A DNA stretch of 64,000 nt from Escherichia coli (lineage in GTDB: Bacteria; Pseudomonadota; Gammaproteobacteria; Enterobacterales; Enterobacteriaceae), in NCBI RefSeq assembly GCF_044324785.1, contig NZ_CP172128.1. The stretch is one strand, 5' to 3'. A program made the position numbers and the translations under genes. Positions 6,059-27,949 of this stretch are shown piece by piece; position 1 is the stretch's first letter; each line of letters opens with the position of its first letter. The notes beneath the pieces were generated by a model. That model had not been told where the DNA came from. It saw only the letters and a program-made list of their open reading frames with translations, and did no database searches.

Positions 6059-6096
6059 CTTAACGTACAATATTTTCCGTTTCCCAAACGGAGCCC
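6059..6096. repeat. Tn21-type 38-bp terminal inverted repeat
   Basis: reverse complement GGGCTCCGTTTGGGAAACGGAAAATATTGTACGTTAAG: GGG outer end, ACGGAAAATA core, TAAG inner end. Confidence 0.55.
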
Positions 6097-6579: not shown

Positions 6580-7309
6580 TACAGGGTAAGTGTGTCAGCA
6601 ATCCGGGGAAAGGATAAAAAACCCCATCCGCAGTATAAAAACCGACCACGCAGAGAGAAAAAACACCGGCGTGATGTGAAAAACAGCTTACCGCACGAGG
6701 CATAAGACGCGGACAGTGGTATCGCTTAGTTTTTCAATTTCCTATACGTGAACAGACCAATTTTGCATTCGCCGTCCAGGAGTTTGAGGGGAAAGTAGTC
6801 AGTGTTTTACGCTCAGTCAGGGAAAGTGTGCAATGATAAATGACACGAAAGGAATCGTAGCACATGGGCACCGCGATTCAATATTCAAGGAAAACACAAT
6901 ACAGCAATGTACTTGTTCTGTTTCTATTATTCTAGCGATTTCAATAAAGGCACTTGCTCGCGCTCTGTCATTTTCTGAAACTCTTCATGCTGCATTTCGA
7001 TTTTCCTTCTAAGATCATAACTCGCATACCTGTTCTTTTTATGTATATCCATATCTATTTTTGTGACGAGTTCAAACCACAATGTTCGCACTCCCCATGC
7101 AGCGTTATGAAACATTTCCGCAACGGCTAGTCTGTATTAACTGCTTCGGTCATGTAGTCGCTAATACGTTCAGCGGTAATTTTCGTTATTTCATCGTAAT
7201 TCATTTTATCTCCTACAAGATTATTTAATGGAATGAAAAATATCTGGCCTGATAATAATGTTCCAGAATTAATATCTGCAGGCTATGTTAAGTTGTCCCC
7301 ACACACAAT

Positions 7310-7585
7310 CTACCTGTTTTCTCGTGTGTGCCACAGGCGCAATACATAAATAGTCTGGCCATTAAGTTCGTAACGGATTTCGTACTCGCCAGCAAAAATC
7401 CGTCTGACCTCCCTGGGTTCAAACTGAAACAACTGTTCTCCCATACGTGGATGAGTTAACAGAATGACCGGTGCCTGTGTCAGGGACTGCACCGTTCTGG
7501 CGGCCGCAGGTTTACTGGCCAGCACCAGAAAATCATATAACCGCGCCAAATCAGAAAGCGCCTTACTGGTCCACTTCAGTTCCAT
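7310..7585 (-). CDS. type II toxin, RelE/ParE family
   Basis: 91 aa, RelE/ParE-like size and C-terminal basic residues; start overlaps stop of upstream small RHH-type ORF. Confidence 0.7.
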   Translation of the reverse strand: MELKWTSKALSDLARLYDFLVLASKPAAARTVQSLTQAPVILLTHPRMGEQLFQFEPREVRRIFAGEYEIRYELNGQTIYVLRLWHTRENR

Positions 7586-7869
7586 CAGCGTGGCACCGGT
7601 AACGGATTGTCAGTACTGAGGCTGTCCGCCCAGGCCTGTACAGCCTGATGGTCGATAACCTGTCCGGATTTCACATCGTCCAGGGCTTCCAGCGTCAGGC
7701 GATTACGCTCCTCCTCCTGGGCAAGCCATGCAGAAAGCGCCTGTTTGATAACCCAGCCCCGGGAGCGTTCCAGTCTGGCGGCCATCTGGTCGACTTTATC
7801 AGCCATTGGTAATGGCACATGCGCGGTAATGACTTTTGTTGCCTGTGCGGTATTGTTTTTCATTTGCAT
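7585..7869 (-). CDS. type II antitoxin (ribbon-helix-helix, ParD/CopG-like)
   Basis: 94 aa, directly upstream of and overlapping the toxin gene. Confidence 0.6.
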   Translation of the reverse strand: MQMKNNTAQATKVITAHVPLPMADKVDQMAARLERSRGWVIKQALSAWLAQEEERNRLTLEALDDVKSGQVIDHQAVQAWADSLSTDNPLPVPR

Positions 7870-7925
7870 ACCCGATTAGTTGTTAATCATATTTAATCAT
7901 AGTGATTACTTTCAGACGGAACAAG

Positions 7926-10483: not shown

Positions 10484-10680
10484 AAGGAAGACTACATCGC
10501 GTTCATGCCGAAACCGAATGTAAGAACGGCATTGCATAATCTTGCAGTGGCGATCGAACATTACAATGAAAACCATCCGCACAGTGCGTTGGGTTATCGC
10601 TCTCCGCGAGAATATCGACGTCAGCGGGTAACATTAACTTAAGATACAACCCCTGTCTGGAAATAAGGGGGCAAGAACAC
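10484..10680 (+). pseudogene. 3' fragment of IS2-like orfB transposase with right-end remnant
   Basis: near-identical at nucleotide level to 4785-4980 of the IS2-like element; begins abruptly at the mini-element IR. Confidence 0.55.
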
Positions 10681-10791
10681 ATTGACACTGTAAATATGGC
10701 ATTGTATAAAACCCCGCGATAATAATGAGTTTCATTTGCATTACTCCCATTTGCTGGTCATCCACTCGCCTGTTTACAAGGATAGCGTTTA

Positions 10792-11790
10792 ATGAAGAAG
10801 GTCCTTTGCGCGTTAGGCTTGATGTTCACCGCCGTCAGTTCCGCGCTGGCAACAACCTACCCCCTGACGATTGAAAACTGCGGCTATCAGGAGACCTTCA
10901 CCCGGCCGCCGGAGCGCGTGGTCGCGCTGGGGCAAAATACGGTCGAAATTCTGCTGCTGCTCGGGCTGCAAAAGCAGGTGGTCGCCAGCGCCTTCTGGCC
11001 GACCAGCGTTTTACCGCAGCTGGCTGAGCAAAACGCGAAGATTAAAACCTTGACGGTGGAAATTCCGAGCCTGGAATCGGTGCTGGCGCAAAATCCTGAT
11101 TTCGTTCCCGCCCAGTTGCCGCTGCTGCTGGGGCCGGAAAGCAAAGTCGCCAGGCGTGAAGATCTCGCCACCGTCGGCGTGAACAGCTACGTCTCACCGG
11201 GGGTGTGCGCCACCAAAAAGGCCACCGGCGATATGTACGGCAGCCGGCAAAAGCTGTGGGATATGACCTGGCTGTATCAGGAAATTAGCGATTTTTCCCG
11301 CATTTTCAACGTCGAAGATCGTGGTCAGGCGCTGATTGCCGATTTCAAAAAACGTGAAGCCGACCTGCGCCAGGAGTTTGGTAAAAGCAAAAAGGATCTC
11401 TCCTTCGTCTTCTGGTTCTCCAGCGCCTCACCTTCGGCCGATGCCTATGTCGGCGGCAAAAACAGCGCCTCCGGATTTATCGCCAGCGTGCTGGGCGGAC
11501 ATAATGCGATTACCTCCGAAACCGAGTGGCCCACGGTGAGCTGGGAGAGCATTATTGCCGCCAACCCGGATGTGATCGTGGTCGCCAGCCTGGATCGTAA
11601 CCGCTGGGCGCTGGATAAAGCCGAGGAGAAGATCAAATTCCTCAAAAGCGATCCCGCCGTCAGCCAGCTGGAGGCGGTGAAAAAAGGCCATATCGTGGTC
11701 ATGGACGGTCAGGCGATGAATCCGACCATTCGCACGCTTTACGGAGCGGAGCAGGTGGGCGAGCAGCTGAGAAAAATGGGGCTGAACTGA
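10792..11790 (+). CDS. ABC transporter periplasmic substrate-binding protein (iron/siderophore type)
   Basis: 332 aa with signal peptide; followed by FecCD-type permease and ATPase genes. Confidence 0.7.
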   Translation: MKKVLCALGLMFTAVSSALATTYPLTIENCGYQETFTRPPERVVALGQNTVEILLLLGLQKQVVASAFWPTSVLPQLAEQNAKIKTLTVEIPSLESVLAQNPDFVPAQLPLLLGPESKVARREDLATVGVNSYVSPGVCATKKATGDMYGSRQKLWDMTWLYQEISDFSRIFNVEDRGQALIADFKKREADLRQEFGKSKKDLSFVFWFSSASPSADAYVGGKNSASGFIASVLGGHNAITSETEWPTVSWESIIAANPDVIVVASLDRNRWALDKAEEKIKFLKSDPAVSQLEAVKKGHIVVMDGQAMNPTIRTLYGAEQVGEQLRKMGLN

Positions 11791-12827
11791 TGAGCGTCGG
11801 CGCGATTGAGACGTGCCGCAGCATACTGCTCACCGGCTGGTGTGTACTGGCAGCGATCGTGCTGGCGCTGGTGATCGCTGTGGGCGTCAGCGTTGGCGAG
11901 CTGGCCATCCCGCTGCAGAATGTCTTTTATGCTATCAGCAACAGAACCGGCTTAACCGCTGAGCCGCTCAACCGTATCTATGAGAGCGTTATCTGGGATT
12001 TCCGCCTCAGCCGCGCGCTGGTCGCCGCCTGCTGCGGCGCCGGCCTCGCTATCTGCGGTGTCGTGCTGCAAAGCTTGCTGAAGAATGCCCTCGCCGAACC
12101 CTACGTCCTCGGCGTCTCCGCCGGGGCCTCCACCGGCGCGGTGTCGATCGTGGTGCTGGGCCTTGGCTCTGGCGCAATTTCCCTCTCGGCAGGCGCCTTT
12201 GCCGGGGCCTTCGCCGCCTTCGCCTTTGTCGCCTTGCTGACTAACGGCGCGCGCGGCGGCAATGAGCGTACGATTCTTGCGGGCGTCGCCGCCTCGCAGT
12301 TATTTAACGCCATCACGGCCTATACCATCAGCACCACCGCCAGCGCGCAGCAGGCGCGCGATGTGATGTTCTGGCTGCTGGGCAGCTTCAGCGGCGTCCG
12401 CTGGCCCGAATTCCAGTTGGTCATCGTGGTGGTGCTCGCGGGTCTGGCGGTCTGCCTGTGGTATGCCCGGGCGCTGGACGCGTTCACCTTCGGCGACGAT
12501 GCCGCCGCCTCGCTGGGGATTGCTGTGCCGCGCGTGCGCCTGATCCTCTTCACCACTGCGGCGCTGATCACCGCCACCATCGTCAGCATGGCCGGCTCAA
12601 TCGGCTTTGTTGGCCTGGTGGTGCCGCACGTGATGCGTTTCTTCTTTGGCCCGCTGCACCGAACGTTGCTGATCGCCAGCGCGCTGGCAGGGGCGATATT
12701 GATGGTACTGGCGGACATTGCGTCGCGCCTGCTGATTGCCCCGCAAAGTCTGCCCGTTGGGGTAGTAACCGCCCTGGTTGGGGTGCCTTTCTTTGCCGTG
12801 ATTATCTACCGCTCAAGGAATAAGTGA
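11790..12827 (+). CDS. ABC transporter permease, FecCD family
   Basis: 345 aa, multi-pass hydrophobic, FecCD-like conserved glycine-rich segments; start overlaps upstream stop. Confidence 0.75.
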   Translation: MSVGAIETCRSILLTGWCVLAAIVLALVIAVGVSVGELAIPLQNVFYAISNRTGLTAEPLNRIYESVIWDFRLSRALVAACCGAGLAICGVVLQSLLKNALAEPYVLGVSAGASTGAVSIVVLGLGSGAISLSAGAFAGAFAAFAFVALLTNGARGGNERTILAGVAASQLFNAITAYTISTTASAQQARDVMFWLLGSFSGVRWPEFQLVIVVVLAGLAVCLWYARALDAFTFGDDAAASLGIAVPRVRLILFTTAALITATIVSMAGSIGFVGLVVPHVMRFFFGPLHRTLLIASALAGAILMVLADIASRLLIAPQSLPVGVVTALVGVPFFAVIIYRSRNK

Positions 12828-13588
12828 TGAGTATTTGCGCTGAAAATATCACCTGGAAGGCAGGCAAAAAGGTCATCGTCAATAATGTCTCGCTGCGGGT
12901 GCCGCGCGGAGAAACGGTCGGACTGCTGGGGCCCAACGGCTGCGGCAAATCCTCGCTGCTGCGCGTTCTGGCGGGCCTGCGCCGCCCGGATGCAGGTCGC
13001 GTCACCCTCGACGGCCAGGATATCGCCCGGATGGCGAAAAAGCAGCTCGCCCGCCGCGTGGCTTGCGTCGAGCAACACGGCATGACCGAGGCCAATATGC
13101 GGGTGCGCGACGTCGTGCGCCTGGGACGCATTCCCCACCACTCTCCGTTCTCAAACTGGAGCGCTCAGGATGACGAAGCGATTGCCGCCGCGCTGCAGCG
13201 GGTAGCGATGCTGGAGAAAAGCGAACAGGGATGGTTAAGCCTCTCCGGCGGCGAGCGGCAGCGGGTGCATATCGCCCGCGCGCTGGCGCAGAGCCCGAGC
13301 GAAATCCTGCTGGATGAGCCGACCAACCATCTGGATATACACCATCAGATGCAGTTAATGCAGTTGATCAGCGAGCTGCCGGTAACCAGCATTGTGGCCA
13401 TTCACGATCTTAACCATGCCGCGATGTTCTGCGATTCGCTGATCGTGATGCAGCAGGGGCAGATCCTCGCCAGCGGGACGCCGGAGGAGATTTTGTCCGA
13501 AGCGCTGCTGTGGGACGTTTTCCGGGTGAAAACCAAAATCGAGATCTCCCCTTACCACGGCAAAAAGCACATTCATTTCATCGTTTAG
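12824..13588 (+). CDS. ABC transporter ATP-binding protein
   Basis: Walker A GPNGCGKSS, signature LSGGERQR, Walker B LLDEPT. Confidence 0.85.
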   Translation: MMSICAENITWKAGKKVIVNNVSLRVPRGETVGLLGPNGCGKSSLLRVLAGLRRPDAGRVTLDGQDIARMAKKQLARRVACVEQHGMTEANMRVRDVVRLGRIPHHSPFSNWSAQDDEAIAAALQRVAMLEKSEQGWLSLSGGERQRVHIARALAQSPSEILLDEPTNHLDIHHQMQLMQLISELPVTSIVAIHDLNHAAMFCDSLIVMQQGQILASGTPEEILSEALLWDVFRVKTKIEISPYHGKKHIHFIV

Positions 13589-13599
13589 GTTGGGCGGAT

Positions 13600-14832
13600 A
13601 TGCCTCTTTTCTCCCTGCGCCCTGCGGCAACCCTCTGGCCTCCGGTGTTACTGGGAAGCCAGTTCGTTTTTAATATTGGCTTTTACGCGGTCGTACCTTT
13701 CCTCGCCCTCTTCCTGCGCGACGACATGCTGCTCTCAGGCGGACTTATCGGCCTGATCCTCGGGCTGCGTACCTTCTCCCAACAGGGGATGTTTATCCTC
13801 GGCGGGACGCTGGCCGACCGCTATGGCGCTAAGGCGATCATTCTCGCCGGCTGCGTCGTTCGCGTCGCCGGTTTTCTCCTGCTGGCGTGCGGGGCGTCGC
13901 TGTGGGCCATTATCCTTGGCGCCTGCCTGACCGGCGTCGGCGGCGCCCTGTTCTCCCCGTCGATAGAGGCCCTGCTGGCGCGGGCCGGTACCCACAGCCA
14001 GGCCAACGGGAAACGCAGCCGCGCCGAGTGGTTTGCGCTGTTTGCGGTATGCGGTGAACTGGGAGCGGTGATCGGCCCGGTGGCCGGAGGCGTGCTGAGC
14101 GGGATCGGCTTTCGACATATCGCCCTCGCCGGCGCGGGAATATTTCTTCTGGCGCTGGCGGTGCTCTTTTTCGGTCTGCCCGCCGACGGGCACACGACAA
14201 CAACGCGCAGACGAGTCCCATGGTGGACGCCTTTGCGCCAGCCGCGCTTTGTCGCGTTTATTCTCGCCTACAGCTCATGGCTGTTGAGCTACAACCAACT
14301 CTACCTCGCTCTGCCGGTGGAGATCCAACGTTCCGGCGGCCGCGAGCAGGATCTGGCGCCGCTCTTTATGCTGGCCTCGCTGTTGATTATCACCCTCCAG
14401 CTCCCTCTCGCCCGCTTCGCCCGGCGAATGGGCGCCGTGCGCATCCTGCCGGTGGGCTTTCTGCTGCTGTCGGCTTCCTTTGCCAGCGTGGCGTTATTCG
14501 CCGCCGCCCCACCCGCCGAAAGTTGGCTGCGGTTAATGCCGGCGGCTGGTTTTGTCACGCTGCTCACCCTCGGCCAGATGCTGTTAGTGCCCGCAGCCAA
14601 GGATCTGATCCCGCTGTTCGCCGAGGAGTCGACGCTGGGCGCCCACTACGGAGCGCTCGCCACCGCAGGAGGGTGCGCGGTGTTAGCCGGGAATTTACTG
14701 CTCGGTCATTTACTTGACCAGGCGCTCATTCCGTCGCCGCAGGCGGTTTATCCCTGGCTTCTGCTGGCGCTGTTTCCGCTGTGCAGCGCCGTCGCCCTGC
14801 GGGCGATCTGTCGCCCGCTGGCGGCAACATGA
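13600..14832 (+). CDS. MFS transporter
   Basis: ~410 aa hydrophobic 12-TM-like protein; ATG at 13600 just after ATPase stop preferred over the 13510 ORF-track start, which overlaps the ATPase. Confidence 0.6.
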   Translation: MPLFSLRPAATLWPPVLLGSQFVFNIGFYAVVPFLALFLRDDMLLSGGLIGLILGLRTFSQQGMFILGGTLADRYGAKAIILAGCVVRVAGFLLLACGASLWAIILGACLTGVGGALFSPSIEALLARAGTHSQANGKRSRAEWFALFAVCGELGAVIGPVAGGVLSGIGFRHIALAGAGIFLLALAVLFFGLPADGHTTTTRRRVPWWTPLRQPRFVAFILAYSSWLLSYNQLYLALPVEIQRSGGREQDLAPLFMLASLLIITLQLPLARFARRMGAVRILPVGFLLLSASFASVALFAAAPPAESWLRLMPAAGFVTLLTLGQMLLVPAAKDLIPLFAEESTLGAHYGALATAGGCAVLAGNLLLGHLLDQALIPSPQAVYPWLLLALFPLCSAVALRAICRPLAAT

Positions 14833-14909
14833 CGCAGAGCGGGTAACAGCCCGCTCTGGAAGTGAACAGCTGGTATCCATATTTTCAGCTAATCCTTTAA
14901 CAAAGATCC

Positions 14910-15085
14910 TCAGCCCTGTTTAAACCCCGGCTTGCCGTTTTTGGCTCGCCATTCCTTCACTTCTTTTACGATACCTTCAGGACTGTCCTCACGGTCATCC
15001 CTTGGATAATAAATAAGATCAGAACCATCAGGGTGTTCAGCTAATCGACGAAATTCATCCACTAATTTATCGTCATCAGCCTCAG
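14910..15085 (-). pseudogene. colicin E-type DNase immunity protein (Im family), 3' fragment truncated by IS1
   Basis: minus-strand translation ...[41 protein letters not shown] matches the conserved C-terminus of Im2/Im7/Im9-type proteins; ORF enters IS1 end. Confidence 0.5.
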
Positions 15086-15853
15086 GGTGATGCTGCCAAC
15101 TTACTGATTTAGTATATGATGGTGTTTTTGAGGTGCTCCAGTGGCTTCTGTTTCTATCAGCTGTCCCTCCTGTTCAGCTACTGACGGGGTGGTGCGTAAC
15201 GGCAAAAGCACCGCCGGACATCAGCGCTATCTCTGCTCTCACTGCCGTAAAACATGGCAACTGCAGTTCACTTACACCGCTTCTCAACCCGGTACGCACC
15301 AGAAAATCATTGATATGGCCATGAATGGCGTTGGATGCCGGGCAACAGCCCGCATTATGGGCGTTGTCCTCAACACGATTTTACGTCACTTAAAAAACTC
15401 AGGCCGCAGTCGGTAACCTCGCGCATACAGCCGGGCAGTGACGTCATCGTCTGCGCGGAAATGGACGAACAGTGGGGCTATGTCGGGGCTAAATCGCGCC
15501 AGCGCTGGCTGTTTTACGCGTATGACAGGCTCCGGAAGACGGTTGTTGCGCACGTATTCGGTGAACGCACTATGGCGACGCTGGGGCGTCTTATGAGCCT
15601 GCTGTCACCCTTTGACGTGGTGATATGGATGACGGATGGCTGGCCGCTGTATGAATCCCGCCTGAAGGGAAAGCTGCACGTAATCAGCAAGCGATATACG
15701 CAGCGAATTGAGCGGCATAACCTGAATCTGAGGCAGCACCTGGCACGGCTGGGACGGAAGTCGCTGTCGTTCTCAAAATCGGTGGAGCTGCATGACAAAG
15801 TCATCGGGCATTATCTGAACATAAAACACTATCAATAAGTTGGAGTCATTACC
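15086..15853 (+). mobile_element. insAB: IS1 copy 1 (insA 15141-15416, insB 15335-15838)
   Basis: 768 bp, ends GGTGATGCTGCCAACTTACTG ... GTTGGAGTCATTACC; no flanking 9-bp duplication. Confidence 0.9.
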
Positions 15854-16048
15854 CGAACTAAAGAGGGGATGGCTGTTGCCCGTTCAAAGGGAAAATTGAA
15901 AGGAAAACAGCCTAAATTATCTGAAAAACAACAAAAAGAACTATGCCGTATGCGTGATACTGGCCAGTACTCTATCAGCGATCTAGCGGAACTATTTACC
16001 GTCTCGCGTGCAACGGTTTATCGAACACTTTCACGAGGACAAAAATGA
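15854..16048 (+). pseudogene. serine resolvase, C-terminal HTH fragment
   Basis: in-frame translation ...GKLKGKQPKLSEKQQKELCRMRDTGQYSISDLAELFTVSRATVYRTL... is a resolvase C-terminal domain; begins at IS1 end. Confidence 0.45.
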
Positions 16049-16307
16049 CCGATTTAACTACACAGCAACATCTAGTAAAAATTGTCCATGATTATGCCTG
16101 CCCTCAAAAGGGTCATGGACAGTCCATCAAAGGTTCAAATGGATTACATCTGCATTCAATACCCAGATTACTTCCGCTTTGCTAAATGGATAGAACGGTT
16201 GGCGTAGGGTATTGTTGATGGTGTAATTAAAGTTCCTAAAGATCATTAAAATATCAGATCGGAAATTTAGGCGGTTCCGGCGTAGAACCCAGAACCCCTT
16301 ATCCGAA

Positions 16308-17171
16308 TTATTGTTCAGTTAACTTCATTTCGACAAGTAAAGGTAAATGATCTGAGACAGATGCATATGGCTTACTTTCAGGGGTCGCTCTATCTGACGG
16401 TTTAGGAATATATACATCTTTAATGTCCCATTTTTGAGCATTTGATGTAAGTATATAATCAATTTTCCTGTCTGGATTCCATGATGGTGCCGTGTACTTC
16501 AATTCCTTATCAGTGTCATTGAACCATGCTGTTAAATCCAAGTACTCTGTTGATTGAGGTGGTAAATTAAGATCACCCACTATAATTGGAAGTGCATTTT
16601 TAAACTGCCAAGAAGAGAATTCTGTTTGAAGAGTTCTTACTTGCTCTGCTCGTAATGGCTGCGTAGTGAAGTCCAAATGAGTAGTTACTAACATAACAGG
16701 CGCAGGATAATTAGGGACATCAACTTCTACAGCACAGGCCGCTCTTTGCTCCGCACCTTTGATGTTAGGTAGTTCCATCCTTTTACTCAATTTCAAATCA
16801 TACTTAGACAGTACTGCTGTACCATATTCCCCACCATCATGATCTATAGCCTTGCAGAAGTAATAATTCATTCCCAACTTATTAGCTATATACTCTGCTT
16901 GATTGACTGGGTTAGAACCCTCTTTACTAAAGTTCTTACCAGAACGCCCAGTCATGTTATCAACTTCTTGCAGTCCAATAATATCAACATTCATTTTACG
17001 AATTGCTTCTACAATGGCATCAGTACTCCCCATTCTAGAGGCCATTATGTTATATGACCCAACACGAATACTATCGGTATCTGCTGGACCATCCATGAGG
17101 CGATCAGAAGCTAAAGTTGAAGAGGAAAGAACTATAAACCCTATAACCGCAGCAATGCTTGTTAATTTCAT
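16308..17171 (-). CDS. secreted endonuclease/exonuclease/phosphatase (EEP, DNase I-like fold) family protein
   Basis: 287 aa; N-terminal signal peptide; EEP-type motifs (GLQEV, VGDLN, C-terminal SDHLP); low-GC gene. Confidence 0.6.
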
Positions 17172-17192
17172 TTTTACACCTTGTTATTTTTG

Positions 17193-18523
17193 TAGACTGG
17201 CCCCCTGAATCTCCAGACAACCAATATCACTTAAATAAGTGATAGTCTTAATACTAGTTTTTAGACTAGTCATTGGAGAGCAGATGATTGATGTCTTAGG
17301 ACCGGAGAAACGCAGACGGCGTACTACACAGGAAAAGATCGCTATTGTTCAGCAGAGTTTTGAACCGGGAATGACGGTCTCCCTTGTTGCCCGGCAACAC
17401 GGTGTGGCAGCCAGCCAGTTATTTCTCTGGCGCAAGCAATACCAGGAGGGAAGTCTTACTGCTGTGGCCGCAGGAGAGCAGGTCGTTCCTGCCTCTGAAC
17501 TTGCTGCTGCCATGAAGCAGATTAAAGAACTCCAGCGCCTGCTCGGCAAAAAAACGATGGAAAATGAACTCCTTAAAGAAGCCGTTGAATACGGGCGTGC
17601 AAAAAAGTGGATAGCGCACGCGCCCTTATTGCCCGGGGATGGGGAGTAAGCTTAGTCAGCCGTTGTCTCCGGGTGTCGCGTGCGCAGTTGCACGTAATTC
17701 TCAGACGAACCGATGACTGGAAAGATGGTCGCCGCAGCCGTCACTCAGATGATACGGATGTGCTTCTCCGTATACACCATGTTATCGGAGAGCTGCCCAC
17801 GTATGGTTATCGTCGGGTATGGGCGCTGCTTCGCAGACAGGCCGAACTTGATGGTATGCCTGCGATCAATGCCAAACGTGTTTACCGGATCATGCGCCAG
17901 AATGCGCTGTTGCTTGAGCGAAAAACCGCTGTACCGCCATCGAAACGGGCACATACTGGCAAAGTGGCCGTGAAAGAAAGCAATCAACGATGGTGCTCTG
18001 ACGGGTTCGAGTTCCGCTGTGATAACGGAGAAAAACTGCGAGTCACGTTCGCGCTGGACTGCTGTGACCGTGAGGCACTGCACTGGGCAGTCACTACGGG
18101 CGGCTTCGACAGTGAAACAGTACAGGACGTCATGCTGGGAGCGGTGGAACGCCGCTTCGGCAACGAGCTTCCGGCGTCTCCAGTAGAGTGGCTGACGGAT
18201 AATGGTTCATGCTACCGGGCTAATGAAACACGGCAGTTTGCCCGGATGTTGGGGCTTGAACCGAAGAACACGGCGGTGCGGAGTCCGGAGAGTAACGGCA
18301 TAGCAGAGAGCTTCGTGAAAACGATAAAGCGTGACTACATCAGTATCATGCCTAAACCAGACGGGTTAACGGCAGCAAAGAACCTTGCAGAGGCGTTCGA
18401 GCATTATAACGAATGGCATCCGCATAGTGCACTGGGTTATCGCTCGCCACGGGAATATCTGCGGCAGCAGGCCAGTAATGGGTTAAGTGATAACAGGTGT
18501 CTGGAAATATAGGGGCAAATCCA
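17193..18523 (+). mobile_element. IS2 copy 1 (insC 17284-17649, insD 17607-18512)
   Basis: 1331 bp, IRL TAGACTGGCCCCCTGAATCTCCAGACAACC, right end ...GGGGCAAATCCA; 5-bp target duplication TTTTG on both sides. Confidence 0.9.
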
Positions 18524-18673
18524 TTTTGATAGTAAATTTACATATCAAAATAAATCATAAAATCGCTTTTTTTAGTGATAAAAACCTCAAAAACAAAAAC
18601 AATTAGTGATCAACATCTCATAAGTAGTACATTTATCAACCGTTCCATTAATGTTTCATTCTATCGCGAATTA

Positions 18674-19441
18674 GGTAATGACTCCAACTTATTGATAGTG
18701 TTTTATGTTCAGATAATGCCCGATGACTTTGTCATGCAGCTCCACCGATTTTGAGAACGACAGCGACTTCCGTCCCAGCCGTGCCAGGTGCTGCCTCAGA
18801 TTCAGGTTATGCCGCTCAATTCGCTGCGTATATCGCTTGCTGATTACGTGCAGCTTTCCCTTCAGGCGGGATTCATACAGCGGCCAGCCATCCGTCATCC
18901 ATATCACCACGTCAAAGGGTGACAGCAGGCTCATAAGACGCCCCAGCGTCGCCATAGTGCGTTCACCGAATACGTGCGCAACAACCGTCTTCCGGAGCCT
19001 GTCATACGCGTAAAACAGCCAGCGCTGGCGCGATTTAGCCCCGACATAGCCCCACTGTTCGTCCATTTCCGCGCAGACGATGACGTCACTGCCCGGCTGT
19101 ATGCGCGAGGTTACCGACTGCGGCCTGAGTTTTTTAAGTGACGTAAAATCGTGTTGAGGACAACGCCCATAATGCGGGCTGTTGCCCGGCATCCAACGCC
19201 ATTCATGGCCATATCAATGATTTTCTGGTGCGTACCGGGTTGAGAAGCGGTGTAAGTGAACTGCAGTTGCCATGTTTTACGGCAGTGAGAGCAGAGATAG
19301 CGCTGATGTCCGGCGGTGCTTTTGCCGTTACGCACCACCCCGTCAGTAGCTGAACAGGAGGGACAGCTGATAGAAACAGAAGCCACTGGAGCACCTCAAA
19401 AACACCATCATATACTAAATCAGTAAGTTGGCAGCATCACC
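18674..19441 (-). mobile_element. insAB: IS1 copy 2 (inverted relative to copy 1)
   Basis: 768 bp; insA/insB ORFs identical to copy 1; no flanking duplication. Confidence 0.9.
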
Positions 19442-19616
19442 CAAGGGGCCAGTCTAGCAGATTATGGTGCGCAGTTATACAACAGCAGTAATGAGGAGTC
19501 TACTATTTCTCTTGTTATGCCAGATGCAATTGAATGGAACGGAAAGAATACGCCAAGACGGCAATACATGATAAAATATATTGCCGTATTTAAATATTAA
19601 AATTTATTTTTGTAGA

Positions 19617-20024
19617 TTATCTGAATTTTCGGTGACCTTCAAGTTTTATATCGTTCATTTTATCCAGAGACTCACGTAATGATTCTATATCCCCGTCCTC
19701 AACTTTCTTTTTTGCAATATTGATTTCATGTTGTAGTTTTTTTAACTCTTCCTTATAACTATCTACAGAAACTTTATCATTAACATCTATCTTTTCAGGA
19801 ATAATATTCATAGAAGAATCTACAGATTTATCCATCATTTCAAGAGCATTTAATAGTGATGATTTATCATTGGAAGATTGTAGAATACTCATACTTTTGG
19901 CAAGAGACTGCATGTTTTTATCCAGGCCGGAAGCCAAAGATACGTTGCTGAGAGATAAAAAAATAGCTAGTACAGCACCTGAGAAAAATACCTTTTGTTT
20001 TTTCATTAATATATTCCTGTTCAA
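19617..20024 (-). CDS. cytochrome b562 family protein
   Basis: signal peptide plus four-helix-bundle-sized protein ending ...HRKFR, like the ...HQKYR C-terminus of E. coli cytochrome b562; alternative start at Met7. Confidence 0.55.
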   Translation of the reverse strand: MNRNILMKKQKVFFSGAVLAIFLSLSNVSLASGLDKNMQSLAKSMSILQSSNDKSSLLNALEMMDKSVDSSMNIIPEKIDVNDKVSVDSYKEELKKLQHEINIAKKKVEDGDIESLRESLDKMNDIKLEGHRKFR

Positions 20025-20204
20025 AGTTGATTATAGTTATGTCAATTTAAGTTTATTATTATGATTTTTTATTTTTGTACTATGAATCTCCTGTATGCTT
20101 ATATGTGCAGAAAATCTCATTTTATCAAGAAGAATATCAAATTTTCTCCGATACTTCTACATACTCCATCATTCATGCTCCTTTTATCCGTGCACCGTAA
20201 AACC

Positions 20205-20338
20205 CCGTCCTTCAGCGGGGATATAAGGCGCTGTTTTCCACCTAACCAGGTGTCTGCTGCTATTCAATGTATTGGCGGATGACGGATGCCGCCCGTTGAA
20301 GCAGGAACCCTCGTCCTTAGGGCGTGGAGGATGTCAAA
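20205..20338 (+). repeat. 134-bp direct repeat, copy 1
   Basis: ~97% identical to 28891-29024; contains short hairpins (CCCCG..CGGGG, GGCGG..CCGCC). Confidence 0.7.
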
Positions 20339-20439
20339 ATGAAAACTTGTGGTATGAATCAATCCATTCATCATCCTTTCGGATCATTGCATTCAGTATA
20401 ACGCTGGAAGAGCCTGGCAATATCACTGTATTGATGGTA

Positions 20440-21330
20440 TTACGCCATGAATTGCTTATTTCTTAAATACGACATGCACCACAGACAGGCTTTTCCTATA
20501 CCATCGGAACGAGCGGCAAGAAATAACTTGGTGGCGTGTTTATGTTCGCGCATTGGCTTTTTAAGCAATTTACCTCTGTTCAATAACGGCAATGCCAGAT
20601 GATGTGGAATATAACCAATACCGACGTTTTGTTCTATTAAGCTGATTGCCATGGCGAAGTCAGGAACAAAAATAGGTTTTTGTCCTTCCAACAACCAGGC
20701 TTGCATTGGGGGGAAGTTAACGGAGGTATCCCGGATACAAACCGCAGGATAATGACGCAATTCACTGTTTTCTAATGGATTCCGCTTCACTGCCAGTGGA
20801 TGAAGTGGGCTGACGACAAAATCCCATTCTATTTGTCCGACCGGTTCGCTAATGATGCCTTCACTGCTTGGTACTGCATGAGGAGCACCGTAGACCAGAT
20901 CAGCACGTTTACTGTACAGCGCATCCCAGCAGCCGTTGTATACTTCAATATCTACCGTCAGTGTTGTTGATGTGAATTGCCGTTCAAAATCTTGAATAAA
21001 TGACACCAGAAAATCACCAGGTATAATATTGTTCACCGCAATTGTCAGTTCACGCTCAATACCATCGTGAATCAGCACTGTGTTGCGCTTTAATGCATCC
21101 AGATCGCGGAGAATATTTTTGCTATGTTCGATGAAGTAACTCCCCGCCGGAGATAATTCAATATATCGTCCCTTACGAATGAACAGTTCAACGCCCAGGG
21201 TTTCTTCCGCTTTCTTCAGGGTGTAACTGATAGTAGAAGGGACTTTATTTAACTGTTCGGCTGCGGTGGTGATGTTCTGGTGTCTGGCGACCAGATGAAT
21301 AATTCGAATCGTTTCGTCTGAGATGAACAT
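20440..21330 (-). CDS. LysR-family transcriptional regulator
   Basis: 296 aa; N-terminal HTH (IRIIHLVARHQNITTAAEQLNKVPSTISYTLKKAEE) and LysR substrate-binding domain. Confidence 0.8.
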   Translation of the reverse strand: MFISDETIRIIHLVARHQNITTAAEQLNKVPSTISYTLKKAEETLGVELFIRKGRYIELSPAGSYFIEHSKNILRDLDALKRNTVLIHDGIERELTIAVNNIIPGDFLVSFIQDFERQFTSTTLTVDIEVYNGCWDALYSKRADLVYGAPHAVPSSEGIISEPVGQIEWDFVVSPLHPLAVKRNPLENSELRHYPAVCIRDTSVNFPPMQAWLLEGQKPIFVPDFAMAISLIEQNVGIGYIPHHLALPLLNRGKLLKKPMREHKHATKLFLAARSDGIGKACLWCMSYLRNKQFMA

Positions 21331-21407
21331 AAGGCTCCCTGGTCAGTGGTAAAGTGGCTGAATCTCTCCAGATTCAGCCGTAATCATTGCCTGAGTATAC
21401 CCAGGAA

Positions 21408-22628
21408 TTAGCGGTGTTGACTTGCCCGACTGAGAATCGCATACGCGATACATGCCACCAGAATGGAGTCAACTGAAGGGATCGTCGTCAGGGTGAATAA
21501 GCCTTTTACGGTCATAAAGCCAACCGCTGTGCCTGTGATCCATGCAGCGAATGTCAGTACTTTAACCTGTGACTCCTGAGTTAACACCGACTCTTGATAG
21601 CCATTACGGCGATAAAGGAAAAAGTCAGCGATATAAATTCCGGCAACTGGGGGAGTCGCGATACCCAGGAACAGCAGAAACGGAATAAACCACGCCATAA
21701 TATCCATACTGCCTACGATGGCGGAAAGGATACCCAGCGCAACGGTAATCTGCCATTTGGGAAAGCGGCTAAGCAGTGTGGAAACTACCAACGTCCCCTG
21801 GAACATATTGCCCGCATTACCGGTGACGCAGGCGAATATCAGCAACAGTGCTGCAGGCATAACCGCACCGAATACTGCCATAGCATTCAGTAAAGAGCCC
21901 TGGCCGCTAATGGCACTCGGCGTTGCACCCGCCCAGTATAGCAGAGGGTAGGCAACCAGAAACGTCATACCTGCGGCAATCAGAGCATGTTTTCGGTTAT
22001 GTACAAAACTACCGAAGTCGGGAAGTGTAGCAACCAGAACAATAATAGTGCCAACAACGGTGGAAACGGCGACACCTGTACTCATCTCCGCTATCGCTGC
22101 TGGCGCTGATACTTCGGTATGGGTTGCCACATAGAGTATATAACACAGCACCAGTGCGATAACCGGCACGGCGACCTGGGCAACTTTGCCCAGAATGGAA
22201 AAACCAAAGGCCGTAGAGGCGACAAAAATGACACAACCAGCTGCCACTAACAGTGCCAGTGGCGCTTCAATCCCATTCTGCGCCAGTAAGTCATGCACCG
22301 AATGACCAAACATATTAGCGGTAACGGCAATCCAGCCGAACAGACTTATAGCCATCAAAATATTAATGGCGATGGCCCCTTTTTCGCCAAATGAATATTT
22401 CACAATACCGTATGTTGGCAGGCGGGCTTTTTCTCCCACACTAATGGTGATGGCTGAAAGTAAGGTCAGAATGACGCCGCCTAATAGTACGACGCTAATT
22501 AAACTACCACTGGAAAGTTGATTGCCGAGGCTTGAGGATGACAACAGCACAGGTGTGACGGCAATACCCAGCAAAATCATGGTAATACGCAATCCTGATG
22601 CCGTATTCATATTATCTTCTTTACGCAT
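21408..22628 (-). CDS. NCS1-type (cytosine/purine/allantoin-like) permease, putative
   Basis: 406 aa polytopic membrane protein with a transporter-like profile. Confidence 0.5.
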   Translation of the reverse strand: MRKEDNMNTASGLRITMILLGIAVTPVLLSSSSLGNQLSSGSLISVVLLGGVILTLLSAITISVGEKARLPTYGIVKYSFGEKGAIAINILMAISLFGWIAVTANMFGHSVHDLLAQNGIEAPLALLVAAGCVIFVASTAFGFSILGKVAQVAVPVIALVLCYILYVATHTEVSAPAAIAEMSTGVAVSTVVGTIIVLVATLPDFGSFVHNRKHALIAAGMTFLVAYPLLYWAGATPSAISGQGSLLNAMAVFGAVMPAALLLIFACVTGNAGNMFQGTLVVSTLLSRFPKWQITVALGILSAIVGSMDIMAWFIPFLLFLGIATPPVAGIYIADFFLYRRNGYQESVLTQESQVKVLTFAAWITGTAVGFMTVKGLFTLTTIPSVDSILVACIAYAILSRASQHR

Positions 22629-22653
22629 AATATGTTTCCTTTATAAATGCGCG

Positions 22654-23043
22654 TTACATCGTGTGAAAATTCCCGGTGTATTTGCGCCAGCCCCCCAGTG
22701 CTGTAATCTCCTTCTGGCCTTCAGTCAGCCAGCTTTCTGCCAGTACGCCCAGTACTTCGCTACCATCGGCAAGTTTGATTTTTCCAATGGTCAGGCCTTC
22801 GGGTTCGTTCATTAACAGTTCGGCAAAACTGGCCAGAGGCAGTTGCCAGATTTCTACGTCTACGTGTGCTCCTCCTTCATTCACGCGGATCATTCCGGGA
22901 TGACGATCATTAATACTCCATAACCGGTAATGGGCGTCAGTTCGGTCTTCACGGACAAAAATACCGCCCGCTTTTTGCATATTTGGGTTGAGTTCCAGAC
23001 CGCGCATCAGCGTTCCGTTAACGGCTAAAAGTGTTGTAGTCAT
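22654..23043 (-). CDS. AIG2/gamma-glutamylcyclotransferase-like protein
   Basis: 129 aa with GGCT-like fold signature at the N-terminus; family assignment tentative. Confidence 0.4.
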   Translation of the reverse strand: MTTTLLAVNGTLMRGLELNPNMQKAGGIFVREDRTDAHYRLWSINDRHPGMIRVNEGGAHVDVEIWQLPLASFAELLMNEPEGLTIGKIKLADGSEVLGVLAESWLTEGQKEITALGGWRKYTGNFHTM

Positions 23044-23059
23044 TGTGTTCTCCAGAGAA

Positions 23060-24016
23060 TTAAAGGGTTATCCATGTTCCGCTCTGATGTGCCAGGGCTG
23101 CTTTTATGGTTTGCGGTGAAGTAATCAGTCCGCTGGCCTGTTTGCCTTGTTGCTGGCTGGCATTGATGAAATCAATAATGGCTTCCACTTTGGGTTGCAT
23201 ACTGCCGACACCAAACTGACCTTCCTGCAACAGCGTTTGAGCTTCGTAGACGCTGATAGCGTCGAGCCATTGTTGTTGTGGTGTACCAAAGTTAATCGCC
23301 ACTTTTTCTACACCGGTGGGGATCACCAGCAGATCAGCGCCTAACTGACTGGCGAGCAATGCGGAGGCCAGGTCTTTATCGATCACGGCTTCCACACCTT
23401 TCAGTTGTTGCCCGTCTCGCACCACAGGTATACCGCCGCCGCCGCAGGCTATAACCAGATATCCCTGGCGCACAAGGTGAGCGATGGTGTGGTGCTCAAT
23501 AATTTCCAGTGGCGCAGGAGAGGGAACTGTACGCCGCCAACCACGCCCGGCGTCCTCCATCAGCGTCCAGCCGAGTTGTTGTTGGCATTGTTGTGCTGTT
23601 TCTTCATCAAGAAACGCGCCAATCGGTTTACTGGGGCTGGCGAAAGCATCGTCATATGGGCTGACTCGCGTTTGTGTCACCAGGGTAATTACCGGTTTGT
23701 TTATGCCACGGCGAGCCAATTCGTTATGCAGCGCTTTCTGGAACATGTATCCAATGGCGCCTTGGGTATCACCCACGGCGTAATCCAGAGGAACCGGAGA
23801 AACTTCGTTACTGGCAAGTTCAGAGCGGCGCAGAATAAAGCCTACCTGCGGGCCATTACCGTGGGTTAGCACCAGGTCCCATCCGGCTTCAACCATATCA
23901 ACGATATGCTGCACGCTTTCCATTACTGCAACATATTGATCGGGAATACTATTGCGTTTATCGTCCTGAATGAGCGCATTGCCGCCAACCGCGACGACAG
24001 CCAGTGGCTTAACCAT
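23060..24016 (-). CDS. carbamate kinase-like protein (YahI/YbcF-type)
   Basis: AVVAVGGNAL ... THGNGPQVG amino-acid-kinase motifs; start taken at MVKPLAVVAVGG rather than the upstream ORF-track start. Confidence 0.75.
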   Translation of the reverse strand: MVKPLAVVAVGGNALIQDDKRNSIPDQYVAVMESVQHIVDMVEAGWDLVLTHGNGPQVGFILRRSELASNEVSPVPLDYAVGDTQGAIGYMFQKALHNELARRGINKPVITLVTQTRVSPYDDAFASPSKPIGAFLDEETAQQCQQQLGWTLMEDAGRGWRRTVPSPAPLEIIEHHTIAHLVRQGYLVIACGGGGIPVVRDGQQLKGVEAVIDKDLASALLASQLGADLLVIPTGVEKVAINFGTPQQQWLDAISVYEAQTLLQEGQFGVGSMQPKVEAIIDFINASQQQGKQASGLITSPQTIKAALAHQSGTWITL

Positions 24017-25433
24017 GATGGTTCTCCTTTGCGACGATCTCCGCCAGTTCACGTACAGCAGCGACAAAACAGGCCATCGGTGCAGTGGTGATCCCGGCAC
24101 CAATTTGTCCGACTCCCGCTTGTTTGTGGGCGATACCCGTATTGATGACCGGTAAAATGCCACGATCGGTCACTTTACACGCATCAATACCTGCTGCGGT
24201 GGGGGCAAAATTGAGGGCTGGAAGTGTAAATGCGGGGTTACCGCCGAGGGTGATTGCCTGCATCCGACGGCTGTTATTGGTGGCATCGGCAGGGGTGCCT
24301 CCCACAAATTTAACAATCGCCGGAGATGACGCCATCGCGAAGCCACCCACACCTGCGGTTTCAGTAATTGCGCTATCACCCAGGTCAGCAGCGGCGTCGT
24401 CAACGCCAAATCCGGGGAAGAACAGACCTTCAACTGCATTGGCAGGAGCCTGGAACCAGCGATCGCCAGTACCGGAAAGCCGAATACCAAAATTCACCCC
24501 GTTACGCGCCATCACCGTAACCATTGAACTGAACGGTACATTGGCGGCGGCATCCATCATTGCTTTACAGGCAGCCATCGACAAATTGAGGAAGAAGTGA
24601 TCGTTACCTGTGATAAATGCCACGACGCGCTGGATATGTTCCTGTGGAAGAGAGCAGGCCAGCAATGCCGGGAGCAGGCGCTTAATCAGCAAACCGGTAG
24701 CGGCAGCATTGCGGTTATGAACTTCATCCCCCATATGCAGCGCCTGCGCCATTAATGGCTTGAGTTCCAGCTCGCCGTGTTGTGCGATTGCTGCTTTCAT
24801 GGCCGGCGCCAGTTCATCACGCATCCAGGCCAGACGATTGAGAACTTCATCGTTATTGGCACCAAAACGGAGAACCTTACCCAGACCCTCATTGAAATTG
24901 CTAAAAGTACGATGGCCGTTGGTTTTGTTTTCCACCACCCATAATGGCATAGACGGGCTGATAATGCCTGCCATTGGTCCAACCGCGTGATAATGATGAC
25001 AAGGAGCAAGGTCGATTTCGCCTGCGTTTATCTGGTTTTCTGCGTCTTTCTGGCTTGTAGCCCAGCCTTCGTACAGCATGGCACCAATAATCGCCCCTTT
25101 TACCGGACCACACATATCTTCCCAGGCAATCGGTGGACCAGAGTGTAAAATGCGTTTTTGTTCAGCCATTTCGGGGATGGCTTCTTTAGCGAGCATGACA
25201 TCCACCAACACGGGCTGTGCTTCGAGATAACGTGTCATGGCGATTTGGTTGGCACTTTCTACCAGTGGATGGCGTAGTAATGACGCCAGAACCAAACCGG
25301 TGTCAATATCACCTTGTGCTGGCGGCTGCCAGTTGAGGGATATAGCATGCCCTCCTGCATGTTGAATATTGTCAGCAAAACTGTGTAGTCCCGCGTTCAC
25401 GACCTTCAAAGGCTGATTAAATAAGGTATTCAT
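24009..25433 (-). CDS. DUF1116 protein (YahG/YlbE-like)
   Basis: ~474 aa, conserved partner of FdrA-like and DUF2877 proteins; start taken at MNTLFNQPL. Confidence 0.65.
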   Translation of the reverse strand: MNTLFNQPLKVVNAGLHSFADNIQHAGGHAISLNWQPPAQGDIDTGLVLASLLRHPLVESANQIAMTRYLEAQPVLVDVMLAKEAIPEMAEQKRILHSGPPIAWEDMCGPVKGAIIGAMLYEGWATSQKDAENQINAGEIDLAPCHHYHAVGPMAGIISPSMPLWVVENKTNGHRTFSNFNEGLGKVLRFGANNDEVLNRLAWMRDELAPAMKAAIAQHGELELKPLMAQALHMGDEVHNRNAAATGLLIKRLLPALLACSLPQEHIQRVVAFITGNDHFFLNLSMAACKAMMDAAANVPFSSMVTVMARNGVNFGIRLSGTGDRWFQAPANAVEGLFFPGFGVDDAAADLGDSAITETAGVGGFAMASSPAIVKFVGGTPADATNNSRRMQAITLGGNPAFTLPALNFAPTAAGIDACKVTDRGILPVINTGIAHKQAGVGQIGAGITTAPMACFVAAVRELAEIVAKENHHG

Positions 25434-26989: not shown

Positions 26990-27083
26990 GCTGTTACGCC
27001 TGTTCCATTCCGCCCGATAGCAAAATTCGGGCAAAGCATCCCCGTGTAGCCCCATAAACGGGCTACGGGAGAAAAGGTTGAAA

Positions 27084-27944: not shown

Positions 27945-27949
27945 CGGCG

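Follow-up and report, generated by a model that had tools for sequence, protein, structure and literature searches.

Two identical copies of IS1 lie inverted to one another on an Escherichia coli plasmid, both lacking the 9-bp target duplication that a third copy nearby displays, and the question raised by this locus is how such a structure arose. The window analysed here is a stretch of 64,000 nucleotides of contig NZ_CP172128.1 (assembly GCF_044324785.1). Missing IS duplications are generally put down to adjacent deletions or to recombination between identical IS copies (PMC11708052). A sequence-only reading of this DNA had left open whether inversion or deletion was responsible, and comparison with related plasmids, a check which that reading had suggested, now points to deletion-type events: the IS1 pair is probably the scar of several such events, and neither a single insertion nor an inversion.

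The IS1 pair and its flanks

The window carries three copies of IS1:
15086-15853, + strand: IS1 copy 1, with insA (91 aa) and insB' (167 aa) frames intact
18674-19441, - strand: IS1 copy 2, its inner junction being IRR and its outer junction IRL
40901-41668, + strand: IS1 copy 3, a simple insertion inside the colicin B gene, serving as the control case

Each copy is 768 bp long with imperfect terminal inverted repeats (GGTGATGCTGCCAACTTACTGAT... and ...ATCAATAAGTTGGAGTCATTACC), and in related plasmids IS1 is annotated as an IS1A family transposase. The overlapping insA and insB' reading frames occupy 15141-15416 and 15335-15838 (+) in copy 1, and 19111-19386 and 18689-19192 (-) in copy 2. Copies 1 and 2 are arranged head-to-head with zero differences over 768 nt, and a repeat search returned them as inverted arms at 15085-15853 and 18674-19442 (769 nt, 100% complementary, spacing 2820 nt); copy 3 differs from them at 2 positions. 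The sequence AACTATTAC stands on both sides of copy 3, a perfect 9-bp duplication (9/9). Copy 1 is flanked by CAGCCTCAG on the left and CGAACTAAA on the right, copy 2 by CGCGAATTA on the left and CAAGGGGCC on the right, and neither has a 9-bp target duplication. When flanks were paired directly and as reverse complements, at offsets within 14 nt, the best agreement apart from the copy 3 duplication was no higher than 6/9, and the outer flanks of the whole IS1-bounded block (CAGCCTCAG vs CAAGGGGCC) match at 2/9 positions.

The arms, flanks and pairwise comparison bear out the earlier description of an inverted pair without 9-bp duplications next to a copy 3 that has one, and exact re-inspection of copies 1 and 2 turned up no matching duplications. 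The missing duplications likewise uphold the view that these two copies, as they stand, are not simple insertions and that IS1-mediated rearrangement was involved. Their absence reflects later rearrangement, and membership of IS1 is not thereby lost.

Source of the enclosed segment

Between the two copies lie the following:
15854-16048, + strand: 3' fragment of tnpR, a Tn3-family serine resolvase gene (Pfam HTH_7; 64 codons and stop, HTH domain only)
16308-17171, - strand: intact gene of the endonuclease/exonuclease/phosphatase (EEP) family (Pfam PF03372, E=6.9e-17)
17193-18523, + strand: internal IS2 (IS3 family), complete at 1331 bp, with the duplication TTTTG at 17188-17192 and 18524-18528
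18524-18673, + strand: Tn3-family interior from the EEP gene to the IS1 site, collinear with L005 7335-7484 and ending with CGCGAATTA

A resolvase 3' fragment, an EEP gene and IS2 had been read from the letters, and all three were recovered at these positions. The EEP gene is a passenger of a Tn3-family transposon, found also on Providencia, IncHI1B and IncK2/Z plasmids; a PDB sequence search with its protein gave no match. The complete transposon (tnpA-tnpR-EEP, ~5.4 kb) is present in Providencia rettgeri p12100-PER (locus L005), with the Tn3 family transposase at 2424-5471, the recombinase at 5620-6195 and identical 32-nt GGGG-type terminal repeats (GGGGTTCTACGCCGGAACCGCCGAAATTTCCG), the norm for Tn3-family ends being about 38 bp with GGGG at the start. 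The tnpR fragment of the window is collinear with L005 6001-6195, part of a gene that is whole there (191 aa, 5620-6195). The elements of p12100-PER and pLH50-c-A are, in their interior, 99.85% identical to window 15854-17192 plus 18524-18673, but of the ~5.4 kb the window keeps only 1.48 kb, without tnpA, the res site, the tnpR catalytic domain or the terminal repeats, and so this fragment is incapable of Tn3-family transposition. The tnpR fragment is a dead gene. The 5-bp target duplications of the transposon are AGTAA in p12100-PER and ATGAA in pLH50-c-A; these and the terminal repeats were read in the relatives, the window having neither end.

In p12100-PER an IS1 occupies the same transposon site, 332 bp from the right inverted repeat, with CGCGAATTA on both sides, and pLH50-c-A retains the partner junction, IRL joined to CGCGAATTATTAAAT. 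In the latter plasmid the transposon sits in the tra region and its tnpR is intact. pLH50-c-A was considered as the pre-rearrangement ancestor and rejected: the immunity gene is absent and an IS1414-like copy directly follows eitD, which makes it a cousin and not an ancestor. The IncK2/Z tra region was also rejected as the origin of the Tn3 fragment in the window, given a clean empty site in pEF5-18-41_2.

The internal IS2 (orfA/orfB, ends TAGACTGGCCCC... and ...GGGGCAAATCCA) is a later simple insertion seen in the window plasmid alone, its junction at 17193 being absent from every relative and from all 5,426 E. coli genomes searched. Another complete IS2, at 34764-36094, is flanked by CCTGT at either end.

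Sequences cut at the outer junctions

Outside the pair, the neighbouring features are:
13645-14832, + strand: MFS transporter gene (Pfam MFS_1), intact, bordering the rearranged region on the left
14910-15085, - strand: 3' remnant of an Im2-like colicin DNase immunity gene (57 codons and stop), cut by IS1 copy 1
19442-19456, + strand: 15-bp remnant from the end of an older IS2 (CAAGGGGCCAGTCTA), adjoining IS1 copy 2 at its outer end
19617-20006, - strand: cytochrome b562 gene (Pfam and relatives' annotation), right neighbour of the IS1 pair

In the annotation of relatives, an ABC substrate-binding protein, a permease and an ATPase precede the MFS transporter gene, which closes an eitABCD-like iron ABC transport cluster, eitABCD being the name used on ColV plasmids. 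The truncated colicin-E-type immunity gene read outside copy 1 matches Pfam PF01320 (colicin/pyocin DNase immunity protein) over profile positions 36-82 of 82; the start and first 27 codons are missing, and only residues 29-85 are kept. In pCys-1 (locus L003) the gene is intact (85 aa, 36039-36296), with the window breakpoint mapping to 36120/36121, and the best PDB match of its protein is the colicin E2 immunity protein (Im2, E=1.8e-45). Upstream of it, the pCys-1 colicin gene is reduced to the final ~82 codons of a gene for a colicin E2-like DNase, an HNH stub that matches colicin E2/E9 residues 500-581. IncF ColV/ColBM virulence plasmids such as NC_007675.1 and pCys-1 carry the same immunity 3' part after the MFS gene, 99.3-100% identical, but with the immunity gene whole beside the 82-codon stub, whereas in the window the stub and the first 27 immunity codons are gone.

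In ~120 IncF ColV-type plasmids with an intact immunity gene, the adjoining colicin gene is annotated as a short HNH-motif protein; the stub was examined in pCys-1 and, for the others, taken from annotation. Since the colicin gene is already an 82-codon stub in these plasmids, the operon was not destroyed by IS1 in the window. The proposed loss of an ancestral colicin E-type operon therefore holds for the stub and the 27 immunity codons, which were removed, and is overstated for an operon that was already reduced. The immunity fragment of the window is a pseudogene. The plasmid has no functional colicin E-type system, and for annotation both the immunity and the resolvase fragments count as pseudogenes.

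On the right, the cytochrome b562 gene is the first gene in an island of ~10 kb with metabolic functions, which includes LysR, cytosine permease, arcC and fdrA among others and reaches to about 29510. The 15-nt remnant next to copy 2 matches the canonical IS2 terminus CAGGGGGCCAGTCTA at 14/15 positions. A 1.08-kb IS2 fragment in pCys-1 stops at exactly the same point, and pEF5-18-41_2 carries the canonical CAGGGGGCC. The pair had been said to truncate two genes; the immunity gene and tnpR are indeed cut, but the truncations number three, because copy 2 also adjoins the end of this older IS2. That the outer flank of copy 2 is an IS2 end, and that copy 2 was once an ordinary insertion with a duplication, had both been missed. 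The IncK2/Z clade has, more generally, gained modules of IncF ColV/ColBM type: eit, colicins B and M, and the carbamate-kinase/fdrA metabolic island.

Distribution of the junctions among public plasmids

All four IS1 junctions recur exactly in independent complete assemblies from Switzerland, Laos, China and other records, and an assembly from Pakistan has three of the four. The immunity-IS1 junction was found in ~14 records, all of them IncK2/Z-type chicken plasmids, while ~120 other records have the intact gene. The IS1-tnpR junction is found in 13 records, all of them in this clade, every other carrier continuing into tnpR. The junction of IS1 with the IS2 end is present in 11 records; at that point ~70 IncF plasmids have IS2 sequence and no IS1, matching the window from 19442 or 19445 on. 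Both junctions of copy 1 and the outer junction of copy 2 are thus confined to a clade of IncK2/Z plasmids of poultry E. coli. The pair is common to at least 13 related plasmids, with the inner segment in one orientation in all 13, and the left context is the same in 13/13 plasmids with the IS1-tnpR junction. Variation is confined to two records, whose outer flank at copy 2 is different and likewise lacks a duplication. The sequence-only reading had missed that the structure as a whole is shared by descent within a plasmid clade and is not recent.

Probable deletion at IS1 ends

Three relatives show what has happened at these ends elsewhere. In p135-1 a single IS1 has its IRR end joined to window position 19744, with 15854-19743 removed; in pPK8275-145kb the outer end of copy 2 borders a gat operon; and in pEF5-18-41_2 window positions 39797-40900 are missing beside its counterpart of IS1 copy 3. 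The same IS1 ends, to judge by these sequences, gave rise to further deletions in sister plasmids, and the locus presents IS1 ends as recurrent deletion points.

An exchange that conserved the displaced DNA would leave reciprocal junctions, which in letters would be ...GGTGAAACTGAGGCTG joined to GGTAATGACTCC or to GGTGATGCTGCC, ...CGACTACGAACTAAA joined to GGTGATGCTGCC, and ...GGAGATTCAGGGGGCC joined to GGTAATGACTCC. Among the 72,556 plasmids of PLSDB there was no junction of the immunity 5' half with CTGAGGCTG and an IS1 end, none of the tnpR 5' part with CGAACTAAA and IRL, and none of the IS2 interior with CAGGGGGCC and IRR. The best match in the IS2 search (98% coverage, 95.9% identity) falls short of full length and full identity and, on those figures, is probably a chance extension. 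In pEF5-18-41_2, compared over its nearly complete sequence (all but 711 bp), the immunity 5' half and colicin stub are not present. Deletion predicts that the reciprocal product is lost.

Intramolecular replicative transposition of IS1 has reportedly been known, from Reif and Saedler in 1975 and Turlan and Chandler in 1995, to yield adjacent deletions and inversions. The window shares with IS1 adjacent deletion that IS1 stays while the DNA beside one end, and with it the duplication on that side, is lost, that the reciprocal product is not kept, and that nested further deletions occur in sister plasmids. Unlike observed cases, the events here are known from their end products, and any junction could have come from recombination. 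Recombination between a pair of IS1 copies yields the same product as adjacent deletion, and the two routes look alike here.

The following order of events is proposed. First, as p12100-PER still displays, an IS1 entered the 5.4-kb Tn3-family transposon with the 9-bp duplication CGCGAATTA, becoming copy 2, whose inner junction has stayed unchanged since. Second, deletion-type IS1 events probably made the other three junctions, whether an IS1 end deleted the DNA beside it by intramolecular replicative transposition or directly oriented IS1 copies underwent homologous recombination. At the outer end of copy 2, the transposon would have lost its right end, together with all the DNA that reached to the last 15 bp of an IS2 next to the cytochrome b562 island. 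To the right of copy 1, tnpR would have lost its first 127 codons, along with tnpA and the res site; to the left of copy 1, the Im2-like immunity gene would have lost its first 27 codons, along with the colicin E2 stub. Third, the structure was fixed in an ancestor of the IncK2/Z poultry E. coli plasmid clade and then inherited. Fourth, an IS2 later entered the stretch that separates the EEP gene from copy 2, duplicating TTTTG, in the window plasmid alone. As three of the four IS1 junctions are affected, several events are needed. No intermediate with IS1 copy 1 and a duplication in the immunity gene or in tnpR was found among the plasmids searched, so the events of the second step are read from end products only. 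Copies 1 and 2 would lack duplications because IS1-driven deletions trimmed the neighbouring DNA.

The history of the junctions, the lack of reciprocals and the deletions in sister plasmids together make IS1-mediated deletion, and not inversion, the best explanation. Nothing suggests a function for the structure. The locus is an ordinary mobile-element mosaic showing ordinary plasmid wear, and its significance beyond annotation is little. It does provide a worked example in which an IS without target duplication is traced junction by junction via public plasmids.

Alternative explanations

Tn1681 (IS1-estA-IS1) is a compound transposon with inverted IS1 copies, and the window block resembles it in having inverted copies, outward IRL ends and a short segment with a single intact gene (EEP). 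A second IS1 might have inserted, inverted, into tnpR to give IS1-tnpR'-EEP-IS1 with two outward IRL ends. A single intramolecular replicative transposition of this element, ending in an inversion, would then make both outer junctions at once and turn the cytochrome b562 island round relative to eit, and the second element copy, with the other immunity half, would be lost later. IRL does stand at both outer junctions, as an inverted-IS1 compound element requires, and the island is inverted relative to eit in comparison with pCys-1-type IncF plasmids, with breakpoints exactly at the immunity gene and the IS2 end. Since pCys-1 and similar IncF plasmids have the cytochrome b562 island facing the other way relative to the eit cluster, an inversion did happen somewhere in the history of the region. 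However, pLH50-c-A (IncK2/Z) already has the orientation of the window without an IS1 pair; it is only because of this one plasmid, itself rearranged, that the inversion is ascribed to other elements. Against the compound element also stand the lack of a second copy or reciprocal junction in the nearly complete pEF5-18-41_2 or in PLSDB, and the extra, unobserved deletion that it requires. Unlike a Tn1681-type unit, the block has no flanking 9-bp duplication (CAGCCTCAG vs CAAGGGGCC), and it was found at no second locus, all 13 IS1-tnpR junctions sharing the same left context; with one locus and no duplication, there is no evidence of movement as a unit. This route is therefore considered unlikely. 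Far bolder would be the proposal that IS1-tnpR'-EEP-IS1 is a still-active, undescribed IS1 compound transposon spreading the EEP gene among enterobacterial plasmids, EEP being advantageous in the poultry gut. It would explain why EEP is kept beside IS1 in IncK2/Z, IncHI1B-type and Providencia plasmids amid erosion, and is highly improbable.

Inversion, which the sequence-only reading had entertained, could have proceeded by recombination between the inverted IS1 copies or by replicative inversion from a single IS1, swapping the flanks of two simple insertions. Identical, inverted copies are good recombination substrates, and plasmid-specific SNPs common to both suggest that they interact. However, the reverse-complement flanks that inversion predicts (left with left and right with right of copies 1 and 2) agree at 2/9 positions each, a result that largely refutes it. 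Replicative inversion from copy 2 predicts a flipped EEP segment, but the inner junction of copy 2 keeps the ancestral orientation to the EEP gene, as in p12100-PER, and the inner segment lies the same way round in 13/13 relatives, with no inversion isomer in these independent assemblies. Inversion is accordingly very unlikely.

An assembly artefact, in which repeat-induced misjoins at IS1 copies gave false junctions, is hardly credible: as a multi-copy repeat, IS1 is a classical cause of misassembly, and the identical copies in the window could be collapsed polishing, but all four junctions are exact in independent complete assemblies, that of IS1 with tnpR in 13. The four junction sequences are handy markers for one clade of IncK2/Z plasmids in poultry E. 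coli.

The IS1 pair and its flanks

A repeat search of the window recovered inverted arms at 15085-15853 and 18674-19442 (769 nt, 100% complementary, spacing 2820 nt), and a third IS1 at 40901-41668. All three copies are 768 bp long and have canonical IS1 ends, with the insA and insB' frames both intact; no base differs between copies 1 and 2, and copy 3 differs at two positions. The sequence-only reading had described copies 1 and 2 as inverted and both lacking a 9-bp duplication, unlike copy 3, and this can be seen in the sequence; the genes it named at the pair were also correct.

Features at the IS1 pair, and the control copy
14910-15085, - strand, immunity gene remnant (Pfam PF01320, profile positions 36-82 of 82)
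15086-15853, + strand, IS1 copy 1, abutting 9-mers CAGCCTCAG (left) and CGAACTAAA (right)
15854-16048, resolvase HTH fragment
16308-17171, - strand, endonuclease/exonuclease/phosphatase (EEP) family gene
17193-18523, IS2
18674-19441, - strand, IS1 copy 2, abutting 9-mers CGCGAATTA (left) and CAAGGGGCC (right)
40901-41668, + strand, IS1 copy 3, abutting 9-mers AACTATTAC (left) and AACTATTAC (right), a duplication

When all 9-mer flanks of the three copies were compared pairwise, directly and as reverse complements with offsets permitted, the copy 3 duplication was the only pairing, all others matching at 6/9 positions or fewer. Exact re-inspection of copies 1 and 2 gave no matching 9-bp duplications, so the observation stands. 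Copies 1 and 2 have plasmid-specific SNPs in common: both carry T at position 282 in the window only, and both carry T at position 262 in pLH10-b-1-A and in pPK8275. At position 29 most relatives still have unlike copies, the first with A and the second with G. The shared SNPs look like gene conversion between inverted copies without crossover; consensus polishing of collapsed repeats could produce them instead.

Related plasmids

The closest public records were large IncK2/Z (I-complex) conjugative plasmids of chicken E. coli, such as pLH10-b-1-A, pEF5-18-41_2, pTB-nb2 and pPK8275-145kb. They bear modules that are more familiar on IncF ColV/ColBM virulence plasmids, namely an eitABCD-like iron ABC/MFS cluster, colicins B and M, an autotransporter, EAST1-bearing IS1414 copies, and a 10-kb island with cytochrome b562, LysR, cytosine permease, arcC and fdrA. 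Thirteen records have this IS1 pair too, enclosing identical DNA except that the IS2 is missing.

The IS2 at 17193 is flanked by the duplication TTTTG, and neither PLSDB (72,556 plasmids) nor a set of 5,426 complete E. coli genomes has a record with it; this IS2 thus entered recently by simple insertion, in the window plasmid alone. A second complete IS2 (34764-36094, 5-bp duplication CCTGT), missing from pEF5-18-41_2, is identical to it over the first 300 nt and lies 17.6 kb away in direct orientation, and recombination between the two could delete the whole island. Within the island are direct repeats at 20203-20338 and 28891-29024 (134-136 bp, ~98% identity), and pTB-nb2 lacks exactly the DNA between them (window 20339-28890), as expected of homologous recombination between these repeats. 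Upstream of the eit cluster, beside a recombinase gene, the window has an insertion of ~1.5 kb (8054-9528) that pEF5-18-41_2 lacks and pLH10-b-1-A shares; the annotation of pLH10-b-1-A gives it as an IS110 family transposase.

Origin of the junctions

Outside its IS2, the enclosed segment matches the interior of a Tn3-family transposon at 99.85% identity. This transposon is complete in Providencia rettgeri p12100-PER (tnpA, tnpR of 191 aa, and the EEP gene), with identical 32-nt GGGG-type ends and the 5-bp duplication AGTAA. A second, independent insertion lies in the tra region of pLH50-c-A (duplication ATGAA), at a site that is empty in pEF5-18-41_2. Because the p12100-PER transposon carries an IS1 at the exact position and orientation of copy 2, with CGCGAATTA on both sides, and pLH50-c-A keeps the partner junction (IRL joined to CGCGAATTATTAAAT), the inner (IRR) junction of copy 2 is that of a simple insertion and has stayed unaltered.

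IncHI1B-typed plasmids have the EEP-IS1 junction too, with different outer flanks. In one of these, pPSS-08-2_2 (locus L004, 8253 onward), the flank outside this same IS1 starts with CAAGG, like CAAGGGGCC in the window, and then diverges; this 5-nt match was taken as chance. The EEP-carrying transposon (L005, in p12100-PER, 2390-8584; L010, a further record, 10535-15995), or parts of it, was seen in plasmids of Providencia, Proteus, E. coli and marine Vibrionaceae (Vibrio, Photobacterium). The resolvase end showed 93-94% identity in shrimp-associated Vibrio plasmids and the EEP gene 97.8% in Vibrio tapetis; a PDB sequence search gave no solved relative of the EEP protein.

The first 15 nt of the copy 2 outer (IRL) flank, CAAGGGGCCAGTCTA, are an IS2 terminus with one SNP, and pEF5-18-41_2 has the canonical terminus, CAGGGGGCC, at this place; copy 2 is thus joined to the former far end of an island-flanking IS2. 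In the IncF plasmid pCys-1, a 1.08-kb IS2 fragment stops precisely at this breakpoint, and in ~70 IncF plasmids the match to the window starts at 19442 or 19445, without IS1. Eleven of the 13 records with the pair have this outer junction.

The copy 1 outer flank matched 139 plasmids, about 14 of which (the pair-bearing clade and p135-1) have the IS1 junction, while the rest run on into an intact gene for an 85-aa immunity protein (best solved relative Im2, E=1.8e-45). Upstream of this gene, all that pCys-1 retains of a colicin E2/E9-like DNase is its last ~82 codons, and the same short HNH-motif protein was annotated in 25/25 of the matches listed, from 121 records with the colicin-stub region, including classical APEC plasmids, e.g. 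NC_007675.1. On this comparison, the colicin gene had therefore already been destroyed before IS1 arrived. The proposed loss of an ancestral colicin E-type operon was therefore overstated: what IS1 took away was the stub, together with 27 immunity-gene codons. The copy 1 inner (IRR) junction occurs in 13 clade members only, every other carrier of the sequence continuing into tnpR.

Deletion or inversion

IS1 is able to delete adjacent DNA by intramolecular replicative transposition. None of the three possible reciprocal junctions was found in PLSDB, and the nearly complete relative pEF5-18-41_2 lacks both the 5' half of the immunity gene and the colicin stub; missing reciprocal products are what deletion predicts, and count in its favor. 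Comparison with related plasmids yielded further evidence of this type. Sister plasmids show further deletions generated from the same IS1 ends: p135-1 has a single IS1, its IRR end joined within cytochrome b562 at window position 19744; in pPK8275, copy 2 adjoins a gat operon on its outer side; and pEF5-18-41_2 lacks window 39797-40900 beside its copy 3 equivalent. The pair would then be the outcome of loss of DNA adjoining IS1 ends rather than of inversion. Missing target duplications are generally put down to adjacent deletions or to recombination between IS copies (PMC11708052).

Relative to eit, the island is inverted compared with the IncF plasmids, and the breakpoints are the two outer junctions. 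A single intramolecular event of a compound IS1-tnpR'-EEP-IS1 element could account for this, but seems improbable: it requires a second copy, which was never observed, and the eit-island orientation of the window is already seen in pLH50-c-A, an IncK2/Z plasmid that lacks the pair. Tn1681 is an IS1 compound transposon with inverted IS1 copies, and elements of this type are alike in architecture; unlike them, the window unit has no 9-bp duplication around it and is found at no second locus.

Copies of a 1.3-kb repeat (31899-33208), rather than IS1, may be responsible for the differing eit-island orientations among plasmids. There are up to four in pEF5-18-41_2, one split by a group II intron, and two in pLH50-c-A. 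The repeat is probably IS1414, since an astA (EAST1) call lies near one copy in pEF5-18-41_2 and an annotated IS256-like IS1414 transposase carrying astA occurs elsewhere on that plasmid.

Inversion by recombination between two inverted simple insertions predicts reverse-complement flank matches, and none exist between copies 1 and 2; replicative inversion starting at copy 2 predicts an EEP segment turned around with respect to that copy, and the segment is seen in the ancestral orientation. The inner segment was flipped in none of the 13 relatives. Of the earlier proposal of IS1-mediated inversion or deletion, rearrangement was right and inversion wrong or unsupported.

With deletion as the preferred reading, the process is textbook IS1 behavior, and all components belong to well-known families (IS1, IS2, a Tn3-family transposon fragment, and an Im2-like immunity pseudogene). 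The pair is real and was accurately observed, but is ordinary.

The colicin B/M region

Copy 3 splits a probable colicin B gene spanning 40236-42575, and looks to have interrupted it; we take the gene to be colicin B from the ORF translations.

Parts of the interrupted gene (ORF translations)
41664-42575, - strand, colicin B N-terminal part
ending at 40236, - strand, colicin B C-terminal pore-forming part

Neighboring genes for a 175-aa membrane protein (39691-40218), colicin M (38634-39449) and its immunity protein (38231-38584) appear intact, the membrane protein being probably a cbi-like immunity protein. In pEF5-18-41_2 the annotation names the colicin M genes. The region is bracketed by tyrosine-recombinase-like genes in direct orientation, one full (37249-38058, 269 aa) and one shorter (42662-43222, 186 aa), which share a repeat of 95% identity (37596-37895 and 42760-43059).
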